Shown in pieces: positions 1 to 34,297 of a stretch of 64,000 nucleotides of DNA (the first letter of the stretch is position 1; each line of letters opens with the position of its first letter). Origin of the DNA: Candidatus Omnitrophota bacterium (GTDB taxonomy: Bacteria; Omnitrophota; Gorgyraeia; Zapsychrales; JAKLDJ01); NCBI GenBank assembly GCA_022703585.1, contig JAKLDJ010000001.1:676006-740005 (forward strand), given 5' to 3'. Position numbers and translations under genes: made by a program. The notes beneath the pieces were generated by a model. That model saw only the letters and a list, made by a program, of their open reading frames with translations. It was not told the DNA's origin and did no database searches.

Positions 1-489
1 ATAAACTCGGAATCGGATGACGCGTATCGCGAAATAGGAATTATCTACTATGGCCGCAGGGATTATGAAACAGCTGTTTCCTATCTTGAAAAATCATCCT
101 TTTATGACCCGGATAACGTCGATAGCTTGCTGTATTTAGGCATGTCTTATTTCAGGTTAAATCAACGCGACAAGGCCATGCCTTTTTTGGAGGAGGCGGT
201 TGTTTTAAGTAAAAATGATAGCTTTGCTTGCCGGTTTATTGCCGCGGAATTATACGATCAGCATTATGCCGTGGATGCCCTTGTTTTTCTTAAGAAAGCG
301 GCACAGTTATTCCCGCGTGATTCCGAGATTTGGCTCCTTTTGGGGAAAATCTATTTTAACCTCCATGATATTCCCAAGGCATTGGCTGCGTGGCAAAATA
401 TCTCAAAGTTTGATCCTGCCAATCCTGAACTAAAGGCTTGCCTGGAAAAGGTTGAGGCCTTAAGGGTGGCCGTGCCCGGTAACCCTTAA
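1..489 (+). CDS. TPR-repeat protein, 5'-partial (open reading frame continues upstream of window)
   Basis: Frame 1 is open from nt 1 to the stop at 487-489. TPR-like YxxxG/LG...Y periodicity (AYREIGIIYYGRRDYETAVSYLEKS, LLYLGMSYFRLNQRDKA). Confidence 0.55.
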   Translation: MNSESDDAYREIGIIYYGRRDYETAVSYLEKSSFYDPDNVDSLLYLGMSYFRLNQRDKAMPFLEEAVVLSKNDSFACRFIAAELYDQHYAVDALVFLKKAAQLFPRDSEIWLLLGKIYFNLHDIPKALAAWQNISKFDPANPELKACLEKVEALRVAVPGNP

Positions 490-585
490 GCAAATTATTG
501 TAATATCTTTGTGTTGTGTTATAATACCTCACCGTTAAGACTACAGCGACGGATTTTTATCGGATAATTCTCGTAACCCCAAGAT

Positions 586-1675
586 ATGATTGATATTATA
601 AATAAAAGAATAGAAATTCTTGAATCAAAGCTTACCCACCTCAGGGGGTTTCTTTGATGTCCCCAAGAAGCTAGAAGCTATCGAATCTATCCAAAAACAG
701 ATGTCTCAACCGACATTCTGGGATGATGCTTCCAATTCCGGAAAATTGGTTCAGGAATTAAAGGCCCTTAAATCAGTTACCGAGCCTTTCGCGCATGGCA
801 GCAAGAAATTGGCAGATCTTAAAGAACTTACGGCTATTTCTCAGGCAGAATCCGATTTCTTAAAGCAAATCGAAAATGAGCTGGGCTCTCTTGAAGGTGA
901 AGTAGAGAAGCTTGAAACCCGGGCGACTCTTTCGGGCGAGTTCGACCGCAATAATGCGATTCTTAGTATTAATGCCGGTGCCGGAGGGACCGAGTCCTGC
1001 GATTGGGCCAGCATGCTTTTAAGAATGTACACCCGCTGGGCTGACGGGAAAAAATTTAAAGTAACGACACTGGATATCCTGCCCGGCGAAGAAGCAGGAG
1101 TTAAAAACGTTACGATTCATATCGAAGGCGAAATGAGTTATGGGTTGTTAAAACCCGAAAAGGGCGTCCATCGCCTGGTGCGTATTTCTCCTTTTGATTC
1201 TAATAAAAGACGGCATACCTCTTTTGCCTCGGTGGATGTTATTCCCGAAATTGAAGATGATGTTACCGTCGATATCAAGCCGGACGAACTGAGGATTGAT
1301 ATTTACCGTTCTTCCGGGCCCGGCGGGCAAAGTGTCAACACGGCCGATTCGGCGGTACGCATTACTCATCTTCCGACGGGAATTGTGGTTCAGTGCCAGA
1401 ATGAACGCTCGCAATTGCAAAACCGGCAATCCGCGATGAAGGTCTTACGTGCCCGGCTTTACGAGCTTAAAAGCAAAGAGCAGGATGACCGTATGGCGGT
1501 TGAATACGGAAAGAAACAAAAAATCGAATGGGGCAGCCAGATTCGTTCCTACGTGATGCATCCCTATTCCATGGTCAAAGACCACCGCACCGAGTTTGAA
1601 ACCGGTAATGTGCAAAAAGTGATGGACGGAGATATCGATTCTTTTATCGAAGCATTTTTAAAAATGAAATCTTAA
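586..1675 (+). CDS. prfB: peptide chain release factor 2 with programmed +1 ribosomal frameshift (frame-0 stop TGA at 655-657)
   Basis: The short frame-0 [26 protein letters not shown] ends at CTT TGA preceded by the SD-like AGGGGG. The +1 frame continues [10 protein letters not shown]... and contains the SPF tripeptide and the GGQ motif ([26 protein letters not shown]). The N-terminus parallels E. coli RF2 (LRGYL-stop-DYDAKK). Confidence 0.9.
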
Positions 1676-1688
1676 AAATAATCTACCC

Positions 1689-4661
1689 ATGATCGATTTT
1701 CTGATTAAAAACACCTTCATCCAAAGCGCTCAAAAGTTCATTGACCGGCTGGAGCCCAAGGTCAATGTCCATATCCCCAAAGATTTGACCCTGCCGTCAG
1801 TTTCTCTTATCAAAAGAATGTCTGTTGTTGTTGCGAAGATCAATAGCATGGAGGCGCAAATTGCCAAGCTCGATAACAACCAGCTTGCCTCGACCACGCA
1901 GCATTTTAAAACAAAGATCAAAGAAGCCGTAAAATCTAAGGAAGAAGAGGTTGCAAGAATCGAGGCCCTTTGCCGCCAGGCCCTCCTGGAAGAGGAAAAA
2001 GAACACTTAAGTGTGGAATTAACCCAGGCGCAGGAAGATTTAAAAAAGACACGAGAGAAAATCTTAAATGACATTTTGCCCGAGGCCTTTGCCGTCGTGC
2101 GGGAGGCCTCCAAGCGCACCATTGGGCTACGCCATTTTGACGTGCAGATGATTGGCGGGATGGTTTTGCATGAAGGGAAAATCGCGGAAATGGCGACTGG
2201 TGAAGGAAAAACCCTGGTCGCTACCCTGGCGGTCTATTTAAATGCCTTAAACGATAAAGGTGTTCATGTTGTTACCGTCAATGATTATTTGGCCAGGCGC
2301 GACCGGGAATGGATGGGGCCGATTTACCAATTTTTAGGGCTTACCGTGGGTGTCATTCAGCATGATATGGATCCTGCCCGGCGGCAGCAGGAGTACGGTT
2401 GCGATATCACTTATGGAACTAACAATGAATTTGGTTTTGATTATTTGCGCGACAACATGGTGGGCGACAAGCAGGAGATGGTCCAGCGCGGGCATCATTT
2501 TTCCGTCGTGGATGAGGTGGACAGCATTTTAATTGATGAAGCCAGGACACCCTTGATTATTTCCGGACCGGCCGAGGAATCGACGGACAAATATTACCGC
2601 GCCAATGATATTGCCGGAAAGCTTAAAGGGCGCCGGATTACGGAAAAAGAAGAAATAGACGCTAAATACCGCGGCGAGGATTTATCCAAAGGGTATGATT
2701 ATGTCGGCGATGAAAAAGGCCGCTCGGTGTCCTTAAGCGAACAAGGGGAAATCAAGGCTGCCCAGCTTTTCGGTATTCCTAATCTGCATGATATGGAAAC
2801 GATTGAATATCGCCACCATATCCTGCAGGCCTTAAAGGCCAAGGAGTTTTTTAGGCGGGATGTCGATTATGTGGTGCGTGACGGCGAGGTCATTATCGTC
2901 GATGAATTTACCGGGCGTATGATGCCGGGCCGGCGCTGGTCGGACGGTTTGCATCAGGCGGTCGAGGCCAAGGAAGGCATTAAGATCGAGCGAGAAAATC
3001 AGACCCTGGCGACAATTACCTTCCAAAATTATTTTAGAATGTACGACAAGCTTTCCGGAATGACCGGTACGGCGTATACGGAAGCCAACGAATTTAAACA
3101 GATTTATAAATTAGACTGCGTTGTCATTCCGACTAACCGGATTTTAAGCCGCACCAATCATGCGGACTGTATTTATAAGACAGTTAAAGAAAAATATCAA
3201 GCCGTGGTCGAAGAAATAGCCGATTTGCATGACGAGGGGCGCCCGGTTTTAGTTGGCACCATTTCTATCGAGAAATCCGAAATCTTGTCCGCCATGCTTA
3301 AAAAACGCGGCATTCCCCACCAGGTGTTAAATGCCAAATATCACGATCTTGAAGCCCATATTGTGGCTCAAGCAGGGCGGTACAAGGCGGTGACTATTGC
3401 TACCAACATGGCCGGCCGCGGAACTGACATTATGCTGGGCGGTAACGCGGAATTTTTAGCCAAAAGCCTTGAGGAGCAAAAGAAGAGAGAGGCCAAGGAT
3501 GAAGCGGAAACTGCGGGCCTTTACGAAAAATTTCTTGAGCAATTTAAAAATCAGGTCAAAGAAGAACATGAAAAAGTCGTGGCGGTGGGCGGGTTGCATG
3601 TCCTGGGTACCGAGCGCCATGAGTCGCGGCGTATCGACAATCAGCTTCGGGGCCGTTCCGGCCGCCAGGGCGATCCGGGCTCGTCGAGATTTTATGTTTC
3701 CCTAGAAGACGACCTGATGAGGCTTTTTGGTTCCGACCGCATTATGGGCATTATGGATAAACTCGGCATGGAAGAGGGCCAGGTGATCGAGCATTCGCTG
3801 GTTACCCGCGCGATTGAAATTGCCCAAAAAAGGGTCGAGGGCCACAACTTTGAAATCCGTAAACAACTTCTGGAATATGATAACGTTATGAATAAGCAAA
3901 GGGAAGTTATTTACGGCTTGCGGCGCTCGATTCTCGAGGGTGAAAATGTCAAAGAATATATCTTGCAGGCGATCGAAGAATCTGCCCGCGCCTTGGTGGC
4001 TCAGCACCTTTCTTCCGAATCAGGTGAAGCCGGCTGGGATTTAGACGGTTTGGTGACCACGCTTAAAACGAGATTTAGCCTTGACCTAACTTCCGAAAAA
4101 GATTCTTTCCACAGCATGTCGGTGGCGGAGATCGAAGAGTTGGCCTTAAAAAAGATTTTGGAATTATATGAGGCAAAAGAGAGGACGATGACACCTGAGC
4201 AGACGCGTTGGCTGGAACGGATTTTTCTTTTGCAGACAATCGACGCTAAATGGAAGGACCACTTGTACGCGATGGACCAATTAAGGGAAGGGATCAACTT
4301 AAGGGCATTCGGCCAACGGGATCCTTTAATCGAATACAAGCGCGAAGGTTTTTTAATGTTCAAGTCCATGTATGAGTCGATTAACCAGGACGTAGGCGAG
4401 ATGATTCTCAAAGTCCAGCCTGCCAAAGACCGTGAAAGGCCCAAAAGCGTTTTTGGTTCCCTGCCCCAGGAGCTTGTTCACAATGACTTTACCAGCCTTT
4501 CCGAAGAAGCGGTGCGGTCATCACAGGATGCTGCTTTTCAGAATGACACTGAACAACCCCCCGCCCCAAAACCTTATCAGCACACCGGCCCCAAGGTCGG
4601 ACGCAATGACCCTTGTCCCTGCGGCAGCGGAAAAAAGTATAAAAAGTGCTGCGGGCAATAA
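1689..4661 (+). CDS. secA: preprotein translocase ATPase SecA
   Basis: [27 protein letters not shown] Walker A region, [19 protein letters not shown] motif, and the C-terminal zinc-binding [14 protein letters not shown]. Confidence 0.95.
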
Positions 4662-4665
4662 ACAA

Positions 4666-6276
4666 ATGACGCAACAACTCCTCCAACGATACTCCGTGGT
4701 AGAAAACATCCTAGAGAATATTTCCGAAAGAATCCGTTCGCATTGCCTGAGGCATCCTTTTCTTTCGAGCGTTTGGCTTTGTTTGTGCTCGGCGTGTCTT
4801 TTAGTCGCGGCCTTTCCCCAAGCCGATATCTGGATACTTTCCTGGGTTGCCCTTGTGCCTTTTCTATTTGTTCTCGACGGAAAAAAGCCGGCAGCGTCTT
4901 TCTTTATCGGCTATCTTCTGGGTATCTTGTTTTTTTCCGGCACCCTGTACTGGTTTATTTATGTGACCAAATTAGGGGCGAGCCTCTTGGTTTTGTATTT
5001 TGGAATTTATTTTGCCCTTTTTGGCCTGGGCTATAGTTTGTTTTCCGGCAAAAGTATTCTTGCCAAGATTATTTTCTTGCCCAGTTTTTGGGTTGGCTTA
5101 GAATTTATCCGGGGGCATCTTTTTACCGGTTTCGGCTGGGTTAATCTTGGGCATTCGCAGTACAAGATCTTGCCGCTTATTCAAATTTCCGATACGACCG
5201 GAGTATTTGGTATCTCCTTTCTGATCGTTGCGGCCAACGTGCTTTTAAAGGAATGGCTCGATGCAAAGATAGAAGAGGCGGATTCTGTCCGTAAACAAAG
5301 ATCTCTAGCCACCGGTATTATTTCAATCCTTTTGATTGCAGCTATTGGATATGGTTTTTATCGGTTGAGCATAAAAGTTTCTCGGGGAGAGGTCAATGTT
5401 GCCGTTATCCAGGCTAATACTCCCCAGGAATTAAAGTGGCAGAAATCTGCCTGGCCGTCGATCATGAAAACATATTTGGATTTAACTCAAAAGGCGGCAA
5501 AAGAAAATCCCGATATCATTATATGGCCGGAGACGGCATTTCCCGGTTTTATATGGGAAGCGCCACAGTTATTTGTGGAGTTACGAAGCCTTGTGGCGCA
5601 ACTCAAAGTACCCTTATTGCTTGGTGTTGTTACCCAGCTTGATGATGCTTATTATAATTCCGCCCTGCTTATCGACCGGGAAGGCGAAGTGATTGTGCAA
5701 CATGATAAGCTGCATTTGGTTCCGTTCGGCGAATATGTTCCTTTAAGAAAAGTTTTTCCATTTCTTTCGGATATCGCCCCCATCGGAGATTTTAATGCCG
5801 GAAATAAGTTTACCTTATTTCCTGTTTCCTCCGGCGGGAGTGAGACAAAAGGCCCTGCCGGTTTTTTCTCGGTTCTTATTTGTTTTGAAGATACGGTTCC
5901 GGAGATTTCCGGGGGGTTTGTCCGGACAGGCGCCAACCTTTTGGTTAATATCACCAATGATGCCTGGTTTCAAGATACCAAAGAGCCGTTTTTGCATATG
6001 CAGGATGCTGTTTTTAGGGCCGTCGAGAACCGCAAATATCTTATTCGAGCTGCCAATACGGGCGTAAGCTGCTTTATTGATTCCCGGGGCAAGGTGATCA
6101 ATCGAGTCGAGAATACGGATAAAAAAGCCACGTATGTCTCCGGCTATAAAATCGAACGGGTCGGGTTAAATAATCAAAAAACTTTCTATACAAAATACGG
6201 AGATGTTTTTACATATTTTTGTTTTGGCAGTATACTATGGGGGATAGCGGGAATAATACGCCGTCGTTTATTTTAA
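4666..6276 (+). CDS. lnt: apolipoprotein N-acyltransferase
   Basis: Multi-TM N-terminal region followed by a CN-hydrolase domain (VAVIQANTPQ, IIWPETAFPG, ICFEDTVPE). The start was moved from the track's 4432 to the ATG at 4666, immediately after the secA stop. Confidence 0.8.
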   Translation: MTQQLLQRYSVVENILENISERIRSHCLRHPFLSSVWLCLCSACLLVAAFPQADIWILSWVALVPFLFVLDGKKPAASFFIGYLLGILFFSGTLYWFIYVTKLGASLLVLYFGIYFALFGLGYSLFSGKSILAKIIFLPSFWVGLEFIRGHLFTGFGWVNLGHSQYKILPLIQISDTTGVFGISFLIVAANVLLKEWLDAKIEEADSVRKQRSLATGIISILLIAAIGYGFYRLSIKVSRGEVNVAVIQANTPQELKWQKSAWPSIMKTYLDLTQKAAKENPDIIIWPETAFPGFIWEAPQLFVELRSLVAQLKVPLLLGVVTQLDDAYYNSALLIDREGEVIVQHDKLHLVPFGEYVPLRKVFPFLSDIAPIGDFNAGNKFTLFPVSSGGSETKGPAGFFSVLICFEDTVPEISGGFVRTGANLLVNITNDAWFQDTKEPFLHMQDAVFRAVENRKYLIRAANTGVSCFIDSRGKVINRVENTDKKATYVSGYKIERVGLNNQKTFYTKYGDVFTYFCFGSILWGIAGIIRRRLF

Positions 6277-6321
6277 GGAAACAGTTTTTTCTTAAAGATC
6301 GCACTGCCGATTTTTCTCGAA

Positions 6322-7161
6322 ATGGATAAACTAAAAACTCAAGGAGTTCAAAACATGGTAAGAAGATCGCTTGATCTGACGGTCGTCGGTTTTGGCCTAT
6401 CGATTGCTTACGTAGTCGGGTTGATTGCAGCGTTGGCGGGGCTATTTTTATCGATTTTTAATCAGGGAGCTTTCTTACAATCGCCGATGTTTATCGGGCA
6501 ATATCGCAGCATTGCGGAATTTCAGCAGTACACTGCCGTGTTGTGGTTTTTATATTTTCTGCAGTTGATAGGATTGGTGGCGGTATTAGACTTAAGGGAA
6601 TGGGGCCGTAAACTGGTTATCGCGGCGAATGCGGCGATGTGCGTTTATACGATATTAAGGGCGGTCCTTCTTTCTCAAGGGATGGATTTTTTCCAGCTTC
6701 TTTCTTTATTTATTTATGCCTTGGTTATCTTTTTCTTTATCCAGCCGAAAATTAAAGAACAATTTCAAAAAGCCCTTGCCCGGGCCCCGCGAAACGGCAA
6801 GACCATTTTGGTTATTGACGACGAAAAAGGCCTTTTGGTCATGGCAAAAAATGCTCTTTCCTGGAAAGGGTTTAGAGTCTTGTTGGCGGAGACCGGCGAA
6901 AAAGGCATAGCGGTATCCAGAAGGAAGAAGCCGGATTTAATTGTTCTGGATGTTATTTTGCCGGGAATCAAGGGAAGAGAAGTTTGTGCGCGGCTTAAAA
7001 AAGATCCGCAAACCAAAGACATTCCGGTTATTTTCCTGACATCAAAGGATTCTCCCGATGATATTAAGGCCGAACTTGAGGCCGGAGGCGTTTCCCATTT
7101 GCCCAAGCCGTTTGATGCCGAGAAATTATCAGCGGAGATCAATAGAGTTTTAGGGCTCTAA
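6322..7161 (+). CDS. membrane-anchored stand-alone response-regulator receiver (REC) domain protein
   Basis: About 150 aa with predicted TM helices, then a CheY-like REC domain (KTILVIDDEKG...PDLIVLDVILPGIKGREV...FLTSKD...KPFD). No output domain. Confidence 0.7.
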   Translation: MDKLKTQGVQNMVRRSLDLTVVGFGLSIAYVVGLIAALAGLFLSIFNQGAFLQSPMFIGQYRSIAEFQQYTAVLWFLYFLQLIGLVAVLDLREWGRKLVIAANAAMCVYTILRAVLLSQGMDFFQLLSLFIYALVIFFFIQPKIKEQFQKALARAPRNGKTILVIDDEKGLLVMAKNALSWKGFRVLLAETGEKGIAVSRRKKPDLIVLDVILPGIKGREVCARLKKDPQTKDIPVIFLTSKDSPDDIKAELEAGGVSHLPKPFDAEKLSAEINRVLGL

Positions 7162-7237
7162 TTATTCCAGCCAGCCGGTTCCTCAGCTGAATATTCTTTT
7201 AAAAGGCATTTTGAGAATTATTTTAAGAGGCATTAAG

Positions 7238-7720
7238 ATGGAAATTAAAAACATAAGAATTAATAAGCCGGAAGATGTTAACGTGATTCTGGGGCAATCC
7301 CATTTTATTAAAACCGTCGAGGATATCTATGAGGCGATTGTTTCTGCTGCCCCGGAGATGAAGTTTGGCCTGGCCTTTTGCGAGGCCTCGGGGGCATGCC
7401 TGGTACGCCTTGAGGGCAATGACGATGAATTAAAGAAGCTGGCTGCCGACAATGCCCTGGAGGTTGGCTCCGGCCACAGTTTCATGATTTTTATGCGTAA
7501 GGGGTTTCCGGTAAATATTCTTAACCAGATCAAAAACGTTGCCGAGGTTTGTTCTGTTTTTGCGGCAACGGCGAACACAGTTGAGGTCGTGGTGGCCGAT
7601 AACGGTGCCGGCCGGGGGATCTTAGGGGTTATCGACGGCGTAAAGCCCAAGGGTATTGAAGACGCCAAGGGCGCCCAGTGGCGAAAAGACCTTTTACGTA
7701 AACTGGGTTATAAAAGATAG
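7238..7720 (+). CDS. conserved hypothetical protein (possibly adenosine-specific-kinase-like, PF04008; unverified)
   Basis: 160-aa ORF with the SD AAGAGG 9 nt upstream of the ATG at 7238. The track start at 7211 is a TTG. The family assignment is a recollection only. Confidence 0.4.
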   Translation: MEIKNIRINKPEDVNVILGQSHFIKTVEDIYEAIVSAAPEMKFGLAFCEASGACLVRLEGNDDELKKLAADNALEVGSGHSFMIFMRKGFPVNILNQIKNVAEVCSVFAATANTVEVVVADNGAGRGILGVIDGVKPKGIEDAKGAQWRKDLLRKLGYKR

Positions 7721-7757
7721 AAAGCTTCGGCGTGCTTTTTGGCCGAGTAATAAACGG

Positions 7758-8717
7758 ATGAATTTTCAAGATCGAATCAAGGTATTTAAAAGGACGATGG
7801 CCCGTAACGGGCTGTATGCCTCTTCCTGGATTTTAACCAATCTCCCGTACGGGGTAGTGTGCTTTTTAGCCAATTTGTTTATTGCTGTCGGTTTTGCTCT
7901 GGCCGTAAAACAGCAGCGCCTCGCTCATGAAAGCTTAACCATTGCTTTTGGCAAAGAAAAAGGCAAAGACGAAATTAATAAAATTGCCAAAGAGTGTTTT
8001 AAAAATCTAGGGCGGGGGATGATTGAGCTTATTTATTTTATGGCTCATCCCCAAATGATCAAAGAAAAGGTTTTTTTTGAGGGCAAAGAACATTTAGACG
8101 AAGCGCTTAAAGGCGGCAAGGGTGTTATTGCGGTCAGCGCTCACTTTGGTAATTTTCCTTTGATGCTTTTACGCTGCGCCCAGGAGGGCTATAAGGTTAA
8201 CGCGATTATCCGTCCGGCGCGCGATAAACAAATCGAGGAGTATTTCTTAAATTTAAGAACCATGCTCGGGCTTAATACAGTCTATAGTCATCCAAGAAAA
8301 CAATGCGTGGATACTTCGATCCGGGTATTACGTAATAACGAGTTTTTGTTTATCCCTTTGGACCAGAATTTCGGCAGTGGGGGCGGGGTGTTTGTTGATT
8401 TCTTCGGTCAAAAGGCAGCCACGGCGACAGGGCCGGTCATATTTGCCATGAGGACCGGGGCGCCGCTGTTGCCGGTGTTTACGGTGCGCGAGCGGGGGGA
8501 TTTTCATAAGATTATTATCGCGCCGCCGTTATTCTTAGAGGAAAAAGAGGACGACAAGGAAACAGTTCTTGTTAATACATCGCGCATTACCCAGATTATC
8601 GAAACGTACATCCGCCGGTATCCCCAGGAATGGGGATGGATGCATCGGCGCTGGAAGAGCCGGCCGGCCGGGGAACCCCAGCCGGTTGATAATCCAACTT
8701 TATCCGTCGAGGTCTAA
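7758..8717 (+). CDS. lipid A biosynthesis (Kdo2-lipid IVA) lauroyl/myristoyl acyltransferase family protein
   Basis: LpxL/HtrB-like lysophospholipid acyltransferase architecture: N-terminal TM segment, then the HxxxxD-type region (VSAHFGNFPL) and the PLDQN...G motif. The start was moved to the ATG at 7758 to avoid overlap with the upstream gene. Confidence 0.65.
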   Translation: MNFQDRIKVFKRTMARNGLYASSWILTNLPYGVVCFLANLFIAVGFALAVKQQRLAHESLTIAFGKEKGKDEINKIAKECFKNLGRGMIELIYFMAHPQMIKEKVFFEGKEHLDEALKGGKGVIAVSAHFGNFPLMLLRCAQEGYKVNAIIRPARDKQIEEYFLNLRTMLGLNTVYSHPRKQCVDTSIRVLRNNEFLFIPLDQNFGSGGGVFVDFFGQKAATATGPVIFAMRTGAPLLPVFTVRERGDFHKIIIAPPLFLEEKEDDKETVLVNTSRITQIIETYIRRYPQEWGWMHRRWKSRPAGEPQPVDNPTLSVEV

Positions 8718-10477: not shown

Positions 10478-12895
10478 ATGAAAGATAAAATCGTAATGGC
10501 GGGAAAATCATTTATCCGGTATATCCTGGGAACTTTTATTTTATTGACGTGTGTCCGGCCGGCTTTTGCCGGAGAAGCGGATTTGATTGTCCCGGATTTA
10601 AGCTCGGTCAGCTTTCTTAACATCGACGGGAGAACACTTCTGTTGTGGGGTATGTCGATTTGTGCTTTCGGTTTTATTTTCGGGTTTGTCCAATTCCTGC
10701 AAATCAAGGCTATTAAGGTCCATAAATCGATGTTTGATATATCCGAATTGATTTATGAAACCTGCAAAACGTACTTAATCACGCAGGGAAAATTCTTGAT
10801 TATCTTGGAAATCTTGATCGGCGTCATCATTACGGTTTACTTCGGCTGGTTGCGACATTTCACCGCGGATAAGGTAGTTACTGTCTTGATCGCCAGCGTT
10901 GTCGGTATTGCCGGTAGCTATGCGGTGGCATGGTTCGGGATGCGCATTAATACCATGGCCAATTCTCGGTCTGCTTTCGGAAGTCTTGGGGGCAAACCTT
11001 TTCCGACCTACGATATTCCCTTAAAGGCCGGTATGAGTATCGGGATGCTTTTAATCAGTACCGAATTATTTGTCATGTTGTGTATTCTGCTTTTTATTGA
11101 CCCGAATTACGCGGGCCCGTGTTTTATCGGTTTTGCCATCGGTGAGTCGCTGGGTGCGTCGGTTTTAAGAATGGCGGGAGGGATTTTTACCAAGATCGCG
11201 GATATTGGGTCGGATTTGATGAAAATTGTCTTTAATATCAAAGAAGATGATGCCCGTAATCCCGGCGTTATCGCGGATTGTACGGGTGACAATGCCGGTG
11301 ATTCCGTCGGGCCCACCGCAGACGGATTCGAGACATACGGCGTTACCGGGGTAGCCCTGATCACATTTATTCTTTTGGCGATCCATGACCCTGTTGTTCA
11401 AGTGCAGCTTTTGGTCTGGATTTTTGTCATGAGACTGGTCATGATTATAGCCAGCGGCGTTTCGTACGGAATTAATTCCGTTATTGCCAAGGCCCGTTAC
11501 GGCAATGCCAAAGAGATGAATTTTGAAGTTCCTCTGACGTCGTTGGTATGGATCACTTCGTTTGTGTCCATTGGTTTTACCTACCTGGCTTCGTATCTAT
11601 TGATTGCCAATCTCGGCGACGGAACACTCTGGTGGAAGCTCGCGTCTATTATTACCTGCGGGACAATAGCGGGAGCGGTTATCCCCGAATTGGTTAAGGT
11701 TTTTACTTCAACCGAGTCGTCTTTTGTCCAGAATATCCTTAATTCATCGCGTAAAGGCGGCGCATCATTGAATATTCTCGCGGGTTTGACAGCCGGGAAT
11801 TTCAGCGCGTACTGGCTGGGATTTGCGATTCTGGTTTTAATGGGAATCGCCTATGGGGTGAGCACCTTGGGATTGGGTGCGATTATGCTGGCGCCGGCAG
11901 TCTTTGCCTTGGGCCTTGTTGCTTTTGGATTTTTGGGTATGGGGCCGGTGACGATCGCGGTTGATTCTTACGGCCCGGTGGCTGACAATGCCCAATCTAT
12001 TTATGAACTTTCTCTGATTGAAAATATTCCCGGCATCAGAGAGGAAATCAAGAGAGATTTTGGATTTGACCCTGATTTTAAGAATGCCAAAGATTACCTG
12101 GAGGCCAATGACGGCGCCGGAAATACCTTTAAAGCGACCACCAAACCGGTTTTGATCGGTACAGCGGTGGTCGGTGCCACGACCATGATTTTCTCCATCA
12201 TCTTTATCTTAACCGGCGGCCTAACTTCACAAATCGATAAGCTCTCTATTCTTCATCCGCCGTTTCTGTTAGGGTTAGTGGCCGGAGGGATGGTGATTTA
12301 CTGGTTTACCGGAGCGTCGATTCAGGCGGTTACAGCCGGTGCCTACCATGCGGTAGAATTTATCAAGAATAACATCAAACTGGAAGGGTCAGAAAAGGCC
12401 TCCATGGCGGACAGTAAGAAGGTCGTGGAGATCTGCACCAAATTTGCGCAAAAGGGGATGATCAACATATTCCTCACCATCTTCTTTAGCACGCTGGCTT
12501 TCGCTTGCCTTGATTCATTTTTCTTTATCGGGTACTTGATCTCGATTGCCCTCTTTGGATTATTTCAGGCGATCTTCATGGCTAATGCCGGCGGGGCGTG
12601 GGATAACTGCAAGAAGTTAGTCGAGACTAAGTTTAAGGATCAAAAAGGAACTCCCTTGCATGCGGCGACAATTGTCGGCGACACTGTCGGGGATCCTTTT
12701 AAGGACACATCATCGGTTGCCATGAATCCGATTATTAAATTCACGACACTGTTTGGGCTTCTGGCGATTGAGATGGCTATTGAATTGAGCCAGAGATTAA
12801 ACTTGATCCTGGCGGTTGTTTTCTTTGCGGTTTCTGTCTTTTTTGTCCTGCGTTCGTTTTACGATATGAGGATCAGGACGGAGGAGCCGGCATAA
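10478..12895 (+). CDS. hppA: membrane-bound proton/sodium-translocating pyrophosphatase (V-type H+-PPase)
   Basis: 805 aa with 15-16 TM helices. Acidic PPi-binding motifs (GDNAGDSVGPTADGFETYG, DNCKK, DTVGDPFKDT). AGGAGG SD before the ATG at 10478. Confidence 0.9.
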   Translation: MKDKIVMAGKSFIRYILGTFILLTCVRPAFAGEADLIVPDLSSVSFLNIDGRTLLLWGMSICAFGFIFGFVQFLQIKAIKVHKSMFDISELIYETCKTYLITQGKFLIILEILIGVIITVYFGWLRHFTADKVVTVLIASVVGIAGSYAVAWFGMRINTMANSRSAFGSLGGKPFPTYDIPLKAGMSIGMLLISTELFVMLCILLFIDPNYAGPCFIGFAIGESLGASVLRMAGGIFTKIADIGSDLMKIVFNIKEDDARNPGVIADCTGDNAGDSVGPTADGFETYGVTGVALITFILLAIHDPVVQVQLLVWIFVMRLVMIIASGVSYGINSVIAKARYGNAKEMNFEVPLTSLVWITSFVSIGFTYLASYLLIANLGDGTLWWKLASIITCGTIAGAVIPELVKVFTSTESSFVQNILNSSRKGGASLNILAGLTAGNFSAYWLGFAILVLMGIAYGVSTLGLGAIMLAPAVFALGLVAFGFLGMGPVTIAVDSYGPVADNAQSIYELSLIENIPGIREEIKRDFGFDPDFKNAKDYLEANDGAGNTFKATTKPVLIGTAVVGATTMIFSIIFILTGGLTSQIDKLSILHPPFLLGLVAGGMVIYWFTGASIQAVTAGAYHAVEFIKNNIKLEGSEKASMADSKKVVEICTKFAQKGMINIFLTIFFSTLAFACLDSFFFIGYLISIALFGLFQAIFMANAGGAWDNCKKLVETKFKDQKGTPLHAATIVGDTVGDPFKDTSSVAMNPIIKFTTLFGLLAIEMAIELSQRLNLILAVVFFAVSVFFVLRSFYDMRIRTEEPA

Positions 12896-13058
12896 ATCTG
12901 TTCTTAAAATTGTGCTGCGGATAACCATCGGCTGGGAGGGGGAGAGGTTTTCATTTTATTGAAAATCGTTCGACAATCCTAAATCGGCCGTGTTAGAATA
13001 ATTCTGATTTTGCGAAAATGTTGATGCAAAGAATAACAGTCTAGAAAAGGGAACTCGA

Positions 13059-13463
13059 ATGCATCCACGGTTAGCGAAGGGCAAGGCAGCGGCAATAGTC
13101 GTCGCGCTTGTATTCTTGGGCGTGTCTTTAAGCGGCTGCTTTTATTTGGTTTTGGGTGCCGCGGCCGCGGCCGGGGGCTATGCCATTAGCTCGGATACGA
13201 TTCAAGGGGAGACCGAGAAAGACTTTCAGGAGGTCTGGGATTCCAGCGTTGAGATTGCTTCGATTATGGGCATGGTCAGCAGCAAAAGCCCTGAACTAGG
13301 GAAGATATCGGCTACCATTGACGGCGCTAAGGTTAATATACAAGTGCTTCAGCTGACAACTTCAACCACCCGACTGAAGGTCAAGGCCAGAAAAGGCCTC
13401 TTTCCAAATATTTCGACCGCCCAAAATATTTTTGTCAAGATTATGAATCGCGTTAACGGATAG
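13059..13463 (+). CDS. lipoprotein, hypothetical
   Basis: Signal peptide with the lipobox LSGC. Confidence 0.55.
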   Translation: MHPRLAKGKAAAIVVALVFLGVSLSGCFYLVLGAAAAAGGYAISSDTIQGETEKDFQEVWDSSVEIASIMGMVSSKSPELGKISATIDGAKVNIQVLQLTTSTTRLKVKARKGLFPNISTAQNIFVKIMNRVNG

Positions 13464-13496
13464 CCGTTCTGCTTTTGCGTGGGGCATAGCCTGCTG

Positions 13497-13524
13497 TTGA
13501 CATCTTCAAGAACTTTGCTACAAT
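13497..13524 (+). promoter_or_regulatory. sigma70-type promoter upstream of the tRNA cluster (TTGACA-16-TACAAT)
   Basis: TTGACA at 13497-13502 and TACAAT at 13519-13524, about 25 nt upstream of the first tRNA. Confidence 0.5.
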
Positions 13525-13548
13525 GGTGACCCTGTAAGATAATAAATT

Positions 13549-13621
13549 GCCGAGATAGCTCAGGTAGTAGAGCGCAGGCCTGAAAAGCCTGGCGTCCCCA
13601 GTGCAAGTCTGGGTCTCGGCA
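13549..13621 (+). tRNA. tRNA-Phe(GAA)-like gene with non-canonical D-loop and T-loop (possible pseudogene)
   Basis: The cloverleaf folds: acceptor GCCGAGA/TCTCGGC, anticodon loop CTGAAAA. The D-loop AGGTAGTA lacks G18G19 and the T-loop reads TGCAAGT instead of TTCRANY. Confidence 0.45.
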
Positions 13622-13712
13622 CTTGACTTCCTCTAAACTACAAGGATAGGCATTCAGAAAAGTCAAGTGCAGTCCCGACCTCCTTAGAATATGATTAGAG
13701 GAGGGTCGGGGC
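13619..13712. repeat. hairpin repeat units H1-H2 (GCACTTGACTT...AAGTCAAGTGC; GTCCCGACCTCC...GGAGGGTCGGGGC) abutting the tRNA 3' end
   Basis: Inverted repeats with 11-13 bp stems separated by AGT/AGC linkers. H1 begins inside the last 3 nt of the tRNA-Phe-like gene. Confidence 0.6.
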
Positions 13713-13855
13713 GGCACTTTACTTCTTTAGGGTTTAAAGGCTGTCATGCAGCAAGGTCGGACACGGAGCCACTTTTCCTTCCAAAATCATTGCCAATATT
13801 TTAAATATCCGTTAGAATAAAATTACTCCAAGGCTGTCGAATCGTGCTGAATATT

Positions 13856-13928
<73 letters not shown>

Positions 13929-13955
13929 TTTAAATATCATACATGGCGTAGTTCA

Positions 13956-14146
13956 GCACTTGCCTTCCTTTAAAAGTATGCTAGAAAAGGCAAGTGCAGC
14001 CCTTGACTTTTATAGGATGTAAGTTTCTTAAGTTTAAAGGAAGTCAAGGGCAGCCCAGCTATCCTTAAAATCTTATTCTAGAGGAGGCTGGTGCAGTCTT
14101 CGACCTTTCGGAATACAGTTTTTTAAGTTTAGAGGAAGTCGAAGGC
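13956..14146. repeat. hairpin repeat units H3-H6 (GCACTTGCCTT..., GCCCTTGACTT..., GCCCAGC..., GTCTTCGACCTT... each with a matching 3' arm)
   Basis: Four consecutive 42-53 nt imperfect palindromes. They share loop motifs TAAGTTTAAAGG / TAAGTTTAGAGG and AGT/AGC junctions. Confidence 0.6.
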
Positions 14147-14206
<60 letters not shown>

Positions 14207-29163: not shown

Positions 29164-31272
29164 ATGGCTTGGATTGAGCGATGCCTTTTCGAAGAGAATA
29201 TCAGCCACAGCGAAGAGAATCCATCAAAGCAGTCTTTTCTTAAAAGGCAGAAATGGGTGATGGTAGGTTTTGCGATGCTTATATTCGGAATAAGTTTTCT
29301 TGAGTATAGGCAGCCATATTATTTCGTGCAGGATGATAATTTTGCGCAGTTTCTTTCTGTTGTTTTGGAAGGCTGTCGTGCTTTTATGAAAGGCGCAATT
29401 TTAGATTGGAGCCCGTATCAATTTCTCGGTTTTCCTGTCGCGAGTACGGGAGAGTATGCCTTAACGTATCCCCCCACATATTTTTCGTTCATTATAGCCC
29501 GCTATCTTCTGGGGAATGAACTATTGACTCTTGATGTGTTTTGCATTCTTCACCTTGTTGCGGGATATTTTGCCGCCTATTGGCTCTTATGGCGTAATAA
29601 ATTGCATCCTTTTCTTGCGGCGGCCGGTAGTTTGTCATTTATCCTGTCAGGGTATACGCTTATCGCAGGGCGCTCCTGGTTTCCTATGATTGCTTCGGTT
29701 GTGTGGATACCGCTTTTATTCTTATCGGTTACTGTGCTTAAGCAAGGCAATCCTGGCTGGAAGTGGATTATCGGCACAGGGTCTATGGTAGGTATTTTCT
29801 TCCATGCCGGGCATGCGCAGATGTGGATGTATGCGATAATGTTTTTTTTATTTTCGCTTACAGTTTTGTTTTGTTCGGGTCAACTGTCTTTCCGTAAAGT
29901 TTTATATGCGATCCCTGCGCTTCTATTCGGCTTAGCGATTGCCATGCCGTTGCTCATTCCTCAATGGTCAATCGTCCGAGGTATTCCGAGAGATCCCTTT
30001 CTGGTATCGGGTATCCCCTATAAGGGCATAGGGGCAATGCTCTTGCCTTTTCCTTTTATCCGTGCCCCATTCCCGGAAACAAGCTGGGGGACTGTCTATG
30101 ACCAAGGGCACCTGACGCCCTTCTATTATTCAGGAACGATATTTTTCGCGGTTTTTTTGGGAGCCATTTTAGCTATTTCGATTTTGTTATTATTTGGAAA
30201 GAATAAGCGGCTATTGCTCAAACGATTCATAGCGGATAATATTTGGATCATCTTAGCCTTGTTAGCCTTGGTGCTTGCGATGGGCCATCGCGGCTTATTA
30301 TGGACTATTCAGGCTCAACTCCCTATCTTTAATAAATTCAGGATGCCCTTTAAGTTTTTACACTACTTTAATTTATTTGCCGTAATGGGAGGGGGCGTGA
30401 TTATAGAGCGGTGTCTTCGCACGGCGCGCAAGAAGGAGCTCTGGGCATTGTTTCTCGGTACAGCTGTCTGCAGCTTAATGCTGTATCATGTCAGCCTTTC
30501 CAGTGCCAGTTTTTATTCCTATGGCGATAGGCCCTCTCGTTTGCAATCATACAAAGATAGATTCAATATTTCAGATTTTTCTGATCGCGGGAATATTCGG
30601 CGAGTCTTAAGTTTAACTTCCGATCGTAGCCCTAAAAGCGGCTATGTATTTTCTCTCAACCATAATTTTCCAACTTTCTTCCATGTCCATGCTTTCGGGG
30701 GATACGACTACTTTATTGATAAATCTCCTTATTTTTCCAAGGCAAAGGAAAATCTGTTCTCTCGTCCTTCGGAAGCGGCTATTGCTTACGGCATACGGTG
30801 GGTTGTTATCGACAGAGATATTGAAGAAAAGAAAATGGCAGATGCGCGTAGTTTAGGATTGGCAAGTTTCTTGCTTGCGCAGGGCGTAAAACGCCGGGTT
30901 ACTCCGGATTATGTCCTCGTTCGGCTTAACAATGCGCATCCCCTTGTATTTGTTGAGGGTCATCCCCGGGGAGCGTTGCCGTTTTCTGTCAAGAATAACG
31001 GCCTTGATATCGATACTTCGCGTATCTTGATTGCCGGAGGGCGCATCGTCATCAATATGCTTTGGCGGCCGGAAATCATGGTCATGCACGGCAAAGAGAA
31101 ATTAAAGTGCGAGGCCGATCTCTGGGGGAGGGTTGTTGCCGAGGTCCCTGCCCAGGTAAAAATTGTCAGTTTCCGGTATCTCCCGCCGTGGAAGGCAGGT
31201 TTTGCGGGAGGAATATTGTGTTTGGCCGGTGCTATCGCTGCCTATTTCTTACTAAGAATGAGAATTCTCTAA
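29164..31272 (+). CDS. YfhO-like polytopic membrane protein (putative GT-C glycosyltransferase)
   Basis: 702 aa with about 12 or more TM helices and a C-terminal soluble domain. Translationally coupled (TAAATG) to the downstream GT2 gene. Confidence 0.5.
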   Translation: MAWIERCLFEENISHSEENPSKQSFLKRQKWVMVGFAMLIFGISFLEYRQPYYFVQDDNFAQFLSVVLEGCRAFMKGAILDWSPYQFLGFPVASTGEYALTYPPTYFSFIIARYLLGNELLTLDVFCILHLVAGYFAAYWLLWRNKLHPFLAAAGSLSFILSGYTLIAGRSWFPMIASVVWIPLLFLSVTVLKQGNPGWKWIIGTGSMVGIFFHAGHAQMWMYAIMFFLFSLTVLFCSGQLSFRKVLYAIPALLFGLAIAMPLLIPQWSIVRGIPRDPFLVSGIPYKGIGAMLLPFPFIRAPFPETSWGTVYDQGHLTPFYYSGTIFFAVFLGAILAISILLLFGKNKRLLLKRFIADNIWIILALLALVLAMGHRGLLWTIQAQLPIFNKFRMPFKFLHYFNLFAVMGGGVIIERCLRTARKKELWALFLGTAVCSLMLYHVSLSSASFYSYGDRPSRLQSYKDRFNISDFSDRGNIRRVLSLTSDRSPKSGYVFSLNHNFPTFFHVHAFGGYDYFIDKSPYFSKAKENLFSRPSEAAIAYGIRWVVIDRDIEEKKMADARSLGLASFLLAQGVKRRVTPDYVLVRLNNAHPLVFVEGHPRGALPFSVKNNGLDIDTSRILIAGGRIVINMLWRPEIMVMHGKEKLKCEADLWGRVVAEVPAQVKIVSFRYLPPWKAGFAGGILCLAGAIAAYFLLRMRIL

Positions 31273-32085
31273 ATGAACCCGAAGGGAAATGCGTCATTAC
31301 CAGAGAGAAACCCATCATTAAATTTCCAGAGCTTCGCAGGGTCCGTGAGCATGAATAGCCTATCGCTTATTATCCCGGTCTACAACGAAGAAGAAAATAT
31401 CTTGCCCCTTTTATCGGCGGTTAGGAAAACGATACCTCTGGTATGCGGTGATTTTGAGGTCATTTTAATCGATGATGCCAGCACAGACGGAACTCCGGGG
31501 ATACTTGATGCTGTCGCCGCGACCGACGGGAAGATAAAAATTCTGCATAATCAGAAAAACAGGACATCAGGCGGAGCCTTAAAAGAAGGTTTTAAAGTTG
31601 CCGGTAAAGAATTGGTATTATATTTCGATGCGGATTTGCCGTTCGATTTAAGCGAGACAGGGAAAGCCATAGCACTGTTGGGAAAAGAAAATGCAGATTT
31701 TATATCTGCCTACAGGCTGAATAGAAACGCAGACGGGATACAAAGATCGATTTACAGCTATATTTATAACGCAATGGTCAATTCCTTGTTTGACCTGGGC
31801 TTAAAGGATGTCGGTTTTTCGTTTAAGCTGTTTAAGCGTGAAATATTAGAGAATATTGTATTACATTCCGAAAGCCCATTTATTAATGCCGAAATGCTCA
31901 TTAGCGCGCGACAGGCGGGGTACAGGATACTGCAATTTCCGACAGTTTATTATCCTCGTACTAAGGGGCGATCGAATATTTTTAGGGTTGCAGTTGTTGC
32001 AAAGATGATTCAGGAGCTGTTCCGTTTTTATTTCTATATACGTAAGTGCCAAGTGCAAGAACAAAAAAGACGCAAAAAAAAGTGA
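31273..32085 (+). CDS. GT2 family glycosyltransferase (polyprenyl-phosphate sugar transferase, DPM1/GtrB-like)
   Basis: LSLIIPVYNEEENI, ILIDDASTDGT and DADL motifs. An alternative start is the ATG at 31351. Confidence 0.8.
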   Translation: MNPKGNASLPERNPSLNFQSFAGSVSMNSLSLIIPVYNEEENILPLLSAVRKTIPLVCGDFEVILIDDASTDGTPGILDAVAATDGKIKILHNQKNRTSGGALKEGFKVAGKELVLYFDADLPFDLSETGKAIALLGKENADFISAYRLNRNADGIQRSIYSYIYNAMVNSLFDLGLKDVGFSFKLFKREILENIVLHSESPFINAEMLISARQAGYRILQFPTVYYPRTKGRSNIFRVAVVAKMIQELFRFYFYIRKCQVQEQKRRKKK

Positions 32086-32180
32086 AATGCAAAAAAGCGT
32101 GACAGTTACCCAAATTTCTGCTTTTAAAGAAATCTTATAGGTTCAATATAGAATCCTTTGGGTTGCCCCCCATGCTTCAT

Positions 32181-32405
32181 CTAATTTCCTATTGTTACCG
32201 GAATCCCTTCTGATAACGCTCCGTTATCATCAACAATATAAATCCAGGTTGGCTGGCCGGGTTGAAATGCCCCTTGATTGATAGCAAACGTGATCGTTTC
32301 GTCGCTCCAATCTGTGACCGGCTGATAATCTCTTGATGTGCAGGAACTCCAGTGGGCTGCTCCTGCGGTTGTCGTGCAGCAGCAAGACGCAGGGGCAGCC
32401 CCAAT
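32181..32405 (-). pseudogene. start-less duplicate of the C-terminal ~70-aa domain of the upstream MopE-like protein (domain cassette / gene remnant)
   Basis: Its translation ...AHWSSCTSRDYQPVTDWSDETITFAINQGAFQPGQPTWIYIVDDNGALSEGIPVTIGN* aligns with ...ATWDSCTIRDYQTILGWSENSITVKLNQGAYEAGQTAWLYVINNDGIPSSGYPVTIGQ* of the 32419..33921 gene. The frame has no start codon (a TAA at 32406-32408 precedes it). Confidence 0.6.
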
Positions 32406-32418
32406 TTAAATTAATTCA

Positions 32419-33921
32419 TTATTGGCCGATCGTTACCGGATATCCGGACGACGGTATGCCGTCATTGTTGATCACGTATAACCAGGCTGTTTGCCCAGCT
32501 TCATACGCGCCTTGGTTCAATTTGACCGTGATGGAGTTCTCGGACCAGCCTAAAATCGTCTGGTAATCGCGAATCGTACAGGAATCCCAGGTGGCGGCAT
32601 TGCCCAGGACAACCCGCGCCCATGTGCCTTTCTGGAATACGATATCATCGAAACGCATGATGTCTGTTCTTGTTTCCAGATCGACGCAGCTCGTTGGCTG
32701 CCACTGAATATAATTCCTTAATAACGTCCCGTCATACACATAACCATTGGCGATGACGTTATTGTTCTGTTCATCAGTGCACCAGGACTGTGTCGGCCCC
32801 TCTCCGGCCAGCTGTCCGTTAAACCACACCCGGAGATACCCATCGTTGGCATAGCGCGCTGTGGCAACTTGATATTCAAATTCAATCTGCCACCAGGTCC
32901 TTTCCTCGGGCTGAATACCCCAACCGTAAGAGGTGATGCTATCAGATCCGTCACCGCATTCATGCTGGACCCCTACGAAAGGTGCGCCTAATGGGGGCAC
33001 ATCGTTAGGGCCTCCGGCTGCATTCCATCCAACTCTCATGCCCGGGGGTGTTAAGCTTGCGGGATTTCCGTGATTGAGGGGGCCCCAAATTTTCCACTGC
33101 TGGGGGCAGTCGGGCCCGTACTGTTGTGCCCCACCGTAGGTTGACCAGATGAACGTACTCATGTAGACCTTGTCTCCGGGCCGGACATTTAACCCGCTTC
33201 TCCAGGTAATATCATTGATCTGGCTCCCTGTAATTCTATCCGGGCGGATTGACCTTGCGTTTAGGCCGTGACCATTACGAAGATCTTCGTTAGAAAACCT
33301 TTCCGCATCGCGCGAACCGGGAGGATTACCGGAAGATACGCTCCAGGGAGAATCGTCAATATCCACAAAAGACTCATTGACCCCCCAGTCCCATGTCTCA
33401 AAAAACGATTCCGGTGCGATTTCCCTGTTCCCAAATCCGCTTCCGGTCATAGTGAACGTCTGGTCGTGAACTAAGCTGGAGGGAAAAACAGAATTTACTA
33501 CGACATCGCCCTCCTGCGGGCATTGCTCTATTGTTCCATCGCAGTTTTCATCGATGTCATTACCGCAGATCTCATCGGCACCGGGGTTGACGGCAGGGTC
33601 GTTGTCGTTGCAATCGTCACCGTAAGGAATAGCATCATAACCGTCATTGTCGCTGTCGTAATCGCAAGGCAAATCCGTACCTGAACAGTCTTCGTCAATA
33701 CCATTGCCGCAGATTTCAACAGCATTAGGATGGATGGCGGGGTTAAGATCGTTGCAGTCATCACCGCCGTATTTTACGTAGATATACCCATCCCGGTCAG
33801 CATCACGAACAGGTGGATTGCTGCCGCCCATGTTCCCTATGTCTCTGTTGGCCCCATAGGCGCTACAGGTGATTATAATGAATGCAGAAAACAAGCTCAG
33901 AATAATCATTAGTTTCTTCAT
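32419..33921 (-). CDS. secreted protein with two MopE-like Cys/Asp-rich putative metal-binding repeats and a C-terminal beta-rich domain
   Basis: Signal peptide. Repeats of the form DxDxDGY...DDCNDxxPAxxPxAxExCGNxIDExC, recalled as the PF11617-type motif. Confidence 0.6.
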   Translation of the reverse strand: MKKLMIILSLFSAFIIITCSAYGANRDIGNMGGSNPPVRDADRDGYIYVKYGGDDCNDLNPAIHPNAVEICGNGIDEDCSGTDLPCDYDSDNDGYDAIPYGDDCNDNDPAVNPGADEICGNDIDENCDGTIEQCPQEGDVVVNSVFPSSLVHDQTFTMTGSGFGNREIAPESFFETWDWGVNESFVDIDDSPWSVSSGNPPGSRDAERFSNEDLRNGHGLNARSIRPDRITGSQINDITWRSGLNVRPGDKVYMSTFIWSTYGGAQQYGPDCPQQWKIWGPLNHGNPASLTPPGMRVGWNAAGGPNDVPPLGAPFVGVQHECGDGSDSITSYGWGIQPEERTWWQIEFEYQVATARYANDGYLRVWFNGQLAGEGPTQSWCTDEQNNNVIANGYVYDGTLLRNYIQWQPTSCVDLETRTDIMRFDDIVFQKGTWARVVLGNAATWDSCTIRDYQTILGWSENSITVKLNQGAYEAGQTAWLYVINNDGIPSSGYPVTIGQ

Positions 33922-34262: not shown

Positions 34263-34297
34263 CTTAGGGCGCCGTTGCCGAGCAACGGCGCCCTAAG
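34263..34297. promoter_or_regulatory. perfect 16-bp-arm palindrome (CTTAGGGCGCCGTTGC cga GCAACGGCGCCCTAAG) followed by a T-run, 12 nt upstream of the marR -35
   Basis: Seen directly in the sequence. It could be a terminator/insulator or a MarR operator. Confidence 0.5.

Follow-up and report, generated by a model that had tools for sequence, protein, structure and literature searches.

The window, by which we mean the whole 64 kb stretch of DNA that was analyzed, carries on its minus strand a gene of 500 codons, here termed gene A, and, directly 3' of it, an open stretch without a start codon that contains a piece with homology to the end of gene A, here termed the fragment. For the identical gene A protein and the genes around it, annotations exist in MAGs of Candidatus Omnitrophota bacterium (HOW35523.1 and others), and the NCBI name of the protein is 'putative metal-binding motif-containing protein' (HOW35523.1). 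Gene A was present on 11 contigs. Two independent assemblies, L001 (ENA) and L002 (Logan), agreed completely (100% identity) over 4 kb; the arrangement is therefore real and no assembly artefact. When gene A and four neighbouring genes were clustered at 90% identity the clusters held this sequence alone; the three members of the gene A cluster differed solely in the called start. All sampled genomes are thus effectively one clone. The features of the locus are listed in Table 1.

Table 1. Position of genes, domains and other elements at the gene A locus (window coordinates).
Feature	Position	Strand	Description
Convergent neighbours of gene A and the fragment	29164..32085	+	YfhO-like membrane protein and family-2 glycosyltransferase; glycan-related context
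Spacer from fragment to convergent GT2 gene	32086..32180	.	95 nt, non-coding
TAG stop of fragment	32181..32183	-	Same alignment position as gene A stop; natural gene end of the family
Orphan fragment	32184..32360	-	59 codons homologous to the family C-piece; start-less; +1 frame relative to gene A
GC-rich RNA hairpin	32354..32401	-	Junction of gene A and fragment; -31.8 kcal/mol, z -2.3
Gene A	32419..33921	-	Intact expressed gene, 500 aa; signal peptide, two PF11617 motifs, 364-aa family unit
Gene A C-terminal piece	32422..32598	-	Residues 442-500; apparent last two-thirds of IPT/TIG domain; 78.5 bits (C-piece HMM)
Inserted ConA-like beta-jelly-roll core	32632..33420	-	Residues ~168-430; polysaccharide-lyase or glucanase-like by fold
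N-terminal two strands of apparent split IPT/TIG domain	33421..33513	-	Residues ~137-167, GSGFG hairpin at end
Two MopE-type PF11617 Cys/Asp-rich motifs	33529..33759	-	Residues ~55-83 and 103-131

An earlier note on this DNA, made from the letters of the sequence, had described gene A as encoding a secreted protein of 500 amino acids with two MopE-type repeats. This was confirmed. The protein starts with a Sec-type signal peptide (judged by eye), and PF11617 (Cu-binding_MopE motif) matched two stretches at 76.5 bits (E 1.8e-21, cut-off 27 bits). A repeat finder detected the same motifs in the DNA as a repeat of 81 nt, 72% identical and with a spacing of 144 nt. The name MopE-like is justified for this short motif alone; the remainder of the protein is accounted for by another family and appears to consist of a split IPT/TIG domain and a lyase-like jelly roll. 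The likeness to the MopE/CorA copper proteins of methanotrophs seems limited to the Cys/Asp-rich motif, present twice in gene A. PF11617 alone is not specific (PMC6189053), and a literature search on Omnitrophota and MopE found nothing.

The region past the MopE motifs was matched end to end by the family-unit HMM (positions 2-354, 513 bits). At its beginning, residues 141-166 gave a weak match to positions 2-29 of the TIG profile, and the AlphaFold (AF2) model contained N-terminal strands E5-10 and E19-25. The C-terminal piece of the unit (the C-piece) did not match TIG on its own. When the N-terminal 30 amino acids of gene A were joined to the C-terminal 70 amino acids, Pfam TIG was matched over positions 2-83/84 at 22.7 bits (cut-off 20.9), and the joined N- and C-terminal pieces of two homologues scored 26.2 and 22.5 bits. 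A profile of the joined pieces matched the solved IPT/TIG protein 8co1_Q2 over positions 7-96 (E 9.5e-6). From these profile matches the 'C-terminal domain' of gene A would seem to make up the final two-thirds of an Ig-like IPT/TIG domain that is interrupted by a jelly roll. The fragment, corresponding to this piece, would then be an incomplete domain.

The core between the two IPT/TIG pieces belongs to the ConA-like jelly-roll class in the AF2 model (pLDDT 71, pTM 0.75). The best Foldseek matches of the core in the PDB were the PL20 glucuronan lyase 2zzj (E 7e-8), PL36, PL7 and PL14 alginate lyases, and GH16 glucanases. The fold match was significant but loose (TM 0.35-0.50, ~10% identity). 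Relatives of gene A had sub-threshold matches to the polysaccharide-lyase models PF14099 and PF21294. Members of the gene A family are secreted and probably glycan-active proteins. The genomic context of gene A points to a link with glycans. The neighbouring genes encode the YfhO-like membrane protein (29164-31272, 702 aa) and the family-2 glycosyltransferase (GT2; 31273-32085), both converging on gene A, and the gene A homologue P0004 is located in a Wzy/flippase/glycosyltransferase cluster. No recombinase, integrase or reverse transcriptase was found among the genes within ~10 kb.

When 1.84 billion proteins were searched with a profile of the family unit (the region past the MopE motifs), 5,015 representative clusters were found at E <= 0.001, and 1,276 of these reached E <= 1e-30. 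Nearly all were matched over profile positions 2-354, and since the matches run nearly end to end the unit of ~350 amino acids constitutes one conserved module, for which Pfam holds no model. Few of the nearest hits of gene A were homologous beyond the MopE motifs, namely P0002 (58% identity) and P0003 to P0005 (45-49%), with others more distant. Within the unit the C-piece evolves most slowly, with 40-56% identity between members where their cores share ~25-30%.

Elsewhere members of the family lie side by side. Five adjacent paralogs in locus L012 are followed by a member split over three reading frames (12560-13570) and then by another unit match; locus L005 has three paralogs, and loci L015-L017 carry tandem pairs. 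The family is evolving by tandem duplication and loss. An isolated start-less C-piece was not found in any of 8 other distinct family loci (L003, L004/L010, L005/L006, L011, L012, L013, L014, and L015-L017). A scan of genome contigs for the family recovered the P0004 locus alone and no conserved relative of the locus with gene A and the fragment, and the same scan of metagenome contigs gave no match. Four loci, all with complete family genes, were found when metagenomes were scanned with the fragment peptide. A synteny scan of genomes by means of the YfhO-like neighbour found no relative; YfhO homologues at 69, 60, and 49% identity were located on short contigs or in other contexts, with different neighbours.

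The open stretch 3' of gene A comprises 74 stop-free codons (32405 to 32184), and it is bounded by a TAA (32406-32408) and by the TAG at its end. There is no in-frame ATG, GTG or TTG among these codons, and the description of a start-less open stretch just past the stop of the gene was therefore correct. The first 15 codons (IGAAPASCCCTTTAG) had no similarity to anything. The 59 that follow are homologous to the end of gene A. BLASTP aligned them to residues 442-499 without gaps (30/58 identical, 52%; E 5e-20), and our own count over residues 442-500 gave 30 identical residues in 59 (~51%). The earlier note had put the alignment at ~70 amino acids and ~55% identity; the homology stands, while both figures were too high. 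The two copies have their stops where genes of the family naturally end, which indicates that they represent two genes rather than one protein with two units.

The hairpin at the junction spans the open codons without homology and extends with its 3' arm into the first two homologous ones. It lacks a U tract, and no intrinsic terminator was called between gene A and the fragment. Neither a MITE nor any other repeat element was found at the junction, and the spacer downstream of the fragment (32086-32180) had no similarity to the sequence past the gene A stop.

The fragment and the end of gene A are 58% identical in DNA sequence over the 59 codons (42% differences). The differences are unevenly distributed, with identities of 0.53, 0.80, and 0.41 at first, second and third codon positions, and 18 of the 30 codons for the same residue differ synonymously. 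We simulated neutral divergence by mutating the end of gene A to the same DNA identity in 20,000 runs. The simulated copies retained an amino acid identity of 30% (sd 4%), and none of the 20,000 reached the observed 51%. No more than 8% of the runs were free of stops, and a third-position identity as low as that observed occurred in 0.08%. The codon-position pattern together with the outcome of the simulation demonstrates that both sequences diverged while they were translated and under selection, i.e., the divergence of the fragment took place under purifying selection at the protein level.

The fragment also shows no decay. It has neither stops nor indels, and a C-piece HMM built from 206 instances in other family members scored it at 79.7 bits, the corresponding end of gene A reaching 78.5 bits. 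This places the fragment at the 45th percentile of 193 genuine C-piece instances. It retains consensus residues that are changed in gene A, e.g., YQP and VDDxG. From the stop-free and indel-free state we estimate that neutral drift since loss of expression amounts to at most roughly 0.1-0.3 substitutions per site, where the tighter end of the range depends on the assumed indel rate; the total divergence between fragment and gene A far exceeds this bound. GC3 was 0.42 for the fragment and 0.66 for the end of gene A. Both values are within the background spread of the window, and GC3 was rejected as a sign of foreign origin.

Among 212 C-piece instances those nearest to the fragment were P0002 (56%), P0303 (54%), P0204 and P0256 (both 52%), and P0212 (51%). 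The end of gene A came sixth with 50%. As the fragment is equally near to homologues of other organisms, it represents the end of some family member and not specifically that of gene A.

We consider the fragment to be a recent relic, namely what is left, at the 3' end, of a second family gene after the loss of its 5' part, and assign this reading a probability of about 75%. A second gene of the same family would once have been located downstream of gene A, either as a tandem paralog or as the earlier resident of the locus. Its promoter, its start and the first ~85% of its sequence would have been removed, either by a deletion within the tandem pair or because an incoming gene A, bringing its own stop, displaced the 5' part. 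The hairpin just past the gene A stop would mark the breakpoint. The 3' end of gene A reads CAA TAA TGA, and the fragment would go untranslated, having no start, lying in the +1 frame and being shielded by three stops (the TAA and TGA in the frame of gene A and the TAA in its own). By itself it would encode merely a part of the split IPT/TIG domain. We infer that the deletion or displacement was recent, since a remnant of an old event would be expected to carry disabling mutations; the intact look of the fragment would thus reflect recency and not function. A related genome with a conserved locus was not found in the genome and metagenome scans, and the ancestral arrangement was not observed.

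Other origins of the fragment have to be weighed against this. A local tandem duplication of the last ~240 bp of gene A, with the unexpressed copy then decaying neutrally, would account for two adjacent pieces in the same orientation that share their end point including the stop. It is, however, hardly compatible with the rejection of the neutral model, as divergence at third positions greatly exceeds that at second positions and the amino acid identity is far above that expected, nor with an undamaged fragment of family-median HMM score that resembles homologues of other organisms as closely as it resembles gene A. We regard such a duplication as extremely unlikely. The earlier note had offered a decaying tandem duplication as its second explanation; what remains of this is a leftover that is not expressed, whereas the origin is not a drifted gene A end and decay is absent. 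The undamaged frame, open over 74 codons, would also be in keeping with ongoing expression of the fragment, whether as a small protein translated from a non-canonical start, e.g., the ATT (32403-32405) that opens the frame, or by recoding from gene A. The ATT is preceded by AT-rich DNA without a Shine-Dalgarno-like sequence, though, and for expression from gene A ribosomes would have to read through TAA and TGA and shift by +1 within the few bases before a further TAA. The resulting protein would lack a signal peptide as well as the first two strands of its domain, and no gene caller in any source produced it. Continued expression is therefore scarcely to be expected.

The reading favoured in the earlier note was that of a gene-conversion cassette. 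The fragment would in that case be a reserve C-terminal piece that is moved into gene A and alters its surface or ligand specificity, by gene conversion or by a deletion of 238 nt between equivalent positions of the direct copies that leaves an in-frame chimera. The layout fits such a donor in that a fully intact piece without promoter or start lies immediately downstream of a gene for a secreted protein in direct orientation, and a deletion between homologous positions is in frame by construction. The coding-type divergence fits as well; an occasionally expressed silent donor would leave the same coding signature as a relic. RecA-mediated recombination needs tens of identical bases, but the longest tract shared by fragment and gene A is 9 nt (TCCGGTAAC), and the repeat finder reported solely a 15-nt match of 87% between them. 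There is no similarity past the stops or upstream of the piece that could serve as shared flanks, and the conserved family segment RFDDIVFQxGTWARV, a possible recombination anchor upstream of the piece, is missing from the fragment. The earlier note had proposed a hunt for more copies of the domain. In the 64 kb window, searched in all six frames by tblastn and HMM, the fragment was the one C-piece besides gene A's own. No G4 motif (G3+N1-7 x4) was found on either strand between 31000 and 35500, and the absence of nearby recombinase and reverse transcriptase genes, as well as of orphan C-pieces in the other family loci, also argues against a cassette. Moreover, the C-piece represents the conserved core of the apparent Ig-like domain and not a hypervariable exposed tip. 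None of 5.8 billion protein clusters shared three 5-mers with the fragment, so that no recorded protein qualifies as its parent or as a chimera. After the identical sequence, the next homologue of gene A was 58% identical; since every sampled genome is identical, rare recombinants may still exist in the population. We therefore find it improbable that the fragment is a donor cassette. A narrower version, in which a one-copy reserve is kept by selection and fused to gene A by rare microhomology-mediated exchange or by the in-frame 238-nt deletion, is in our view highly improbable. If true, a minority of cells would exchange the C-terminal two-thirds of the IPT/TIG domain in a secreted protein active on glycans, and this uncultivated Omnitrophota bacterium would possess a minimal C-terminal switch that is independent of RecA.

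The locus can be compared to several known systems. In Neisseria pilE/pilS, too, a promoterless partial copy of the C-terminal region of a surface protein is located near the expressed gene. pilS cassettes are numerous, with eight per locus in the isolates described, pilE conversion requires an upstream G4 motif and is enhanced by the 66-bp Sma/Cla 3' repeat, and pilS cassettes without the G4/Sma/Cla motifs do not act as donors (PMC4023411). The gene A locus differs in having a single copy at 58% DNA identity, with neither a G4 motif nor a shared 3' repeat. Orphan modules of CDI (cdiA-CT/cdiI) and Rhs systems are similar in that a start-less 3' end lies downstream of an intact family gene in the same orientation. 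Many of these modules have kept a stretch with homology to the gene upstream and are accompanied by immunity genes (PMC4927057). The fragment, by contrast, begins past RFDDIVFQxGTWARV and is followed by the non-coding spacer and then the GT2 gene, with no cognate gene; furthermore, gene A does not encode a polymorphic toxin, and the fragment corresponds to a conserved part of an Ig-like domain rather than to a variable tip. DGR, shufflon and invertase readings were rejected as well, since the two copies are too dissimilar and lie in direct orientation, with no reverse transcriptase or recombinase nearby. The template and variable repeats of a DGR are near-identical and differ mainly at adenines, whereas the copies here, at 58% identity, differ at all bases and codon positions.

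The closest likeness is to gene remnants in tandem paralog arrays evolving by birth-and-death. There, as here, a truncated start-less 3' piece lies beside an intact member, and in other organisms the gene A family itself forms tandem arrays and includes a fragmented pseudogene. The present case is unlike these remnants in that the 5' part of the lost gene is wholly gone while what is left carries no disabling mutation.

As a gene relic the fragment is of little import in itself; it would record one recent loss or replacement in a tandemly duplicating family of secreted proteins. It also calls for caution, because a start-less intact copy beside the gene for a surface protein is insufficient to call a variation system; copy number, tracts of DNA identity and initiation elements are needed as well. 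A by-product of the analysis is possibly more useful, namely the recognition of a large family without a Pfam model, spread over the 5,015 representative clusters and often encoded near polysaccharide-synthesis genes, whose unit looks, by profile matching, like an IPT/TIG domain into which a lyase-like jelly roll is inserted.

The part of the 500-aa protein that lies downstream of its PF11617 motifs is a unit of a large family, which is without a Pfam model. With a cut-off of E <= 0.001 the family comprises 5,015 representative clusters, 1,276 of them reaching E <= 1e-30. The unit appears to be an IPT/TIG domain interrupted by a polysaccharide-lyase-like jelly roll of ~265 aa, apparently inserted after the GSGFG hairpin. 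Many members are secreted proteins with a single unit; 2-6 units occur in some.

Family paralogs were found arrayed in tandem in locus L012 (4653-15821), and this array, which includes a member broken across three reading frames, is a clear example of birth-and-death evolution of the family. Tandem family genes were also observed at L015 1782-4006, where the open frames of two neighbouring members (1782-2885 and 2783-4006) overlap by ~100 nt; the arrangement is identical in L016 and L017. Locus L005 holds three further tandem members (99-8485). A type IX secretion C-terminal sorting domain is present in each of the three, and additional genes with sorting domains are interspersed among them.

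Positions of the family unit and of tandem family members
Feature	Sequence	Position	Strand	Length
Family unit of the 500-aa gene	window	32422-33513	minus	~360 aa
Five adjacent family genes	L012	4653-11036		
Member broken across three frames	L012	12560-13570		
Additional family match	L012	14574-15821		
Family member	L005	99-1520		
Family member	L005	5726-7183		
Family member	L005	7187-8485		

Window 34263-34297 (plus strand) holds a perfect inverted repeat of 16 nt whose loop is 3 nt long, and a run of Ts comes after it. The repeat separates the start of the 500-aa gene from a promoter-like site (34310) upstream of a marR-tolC efflux operon, and may serve as terminator or operator. The GT2 gene (31273-32085, plus strand) begins directly where the YfhO-like gene ends (31272/31273); the GT2 start differs between sources (270-aa call vs. 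NCBI's 244-aa call). Elsewhere in the window tRNA genes are clustered at 13549-14206 (plus strand). The final match (14148-14206) spans only 59 nt, scores 30.5 bits against an Rfam threshold of 29, and may be a truncated tRNA.

P0004, a homologue 49% identical to the 500-aa protein, is located within an exopolysaccharide biosynthesis cluster (L004 1-21203) encoding a Wzy polymerase, a flippase, several glycosyltransferases and a polysaccharide deacetylase. This location supports a role of the family in glycan processing.
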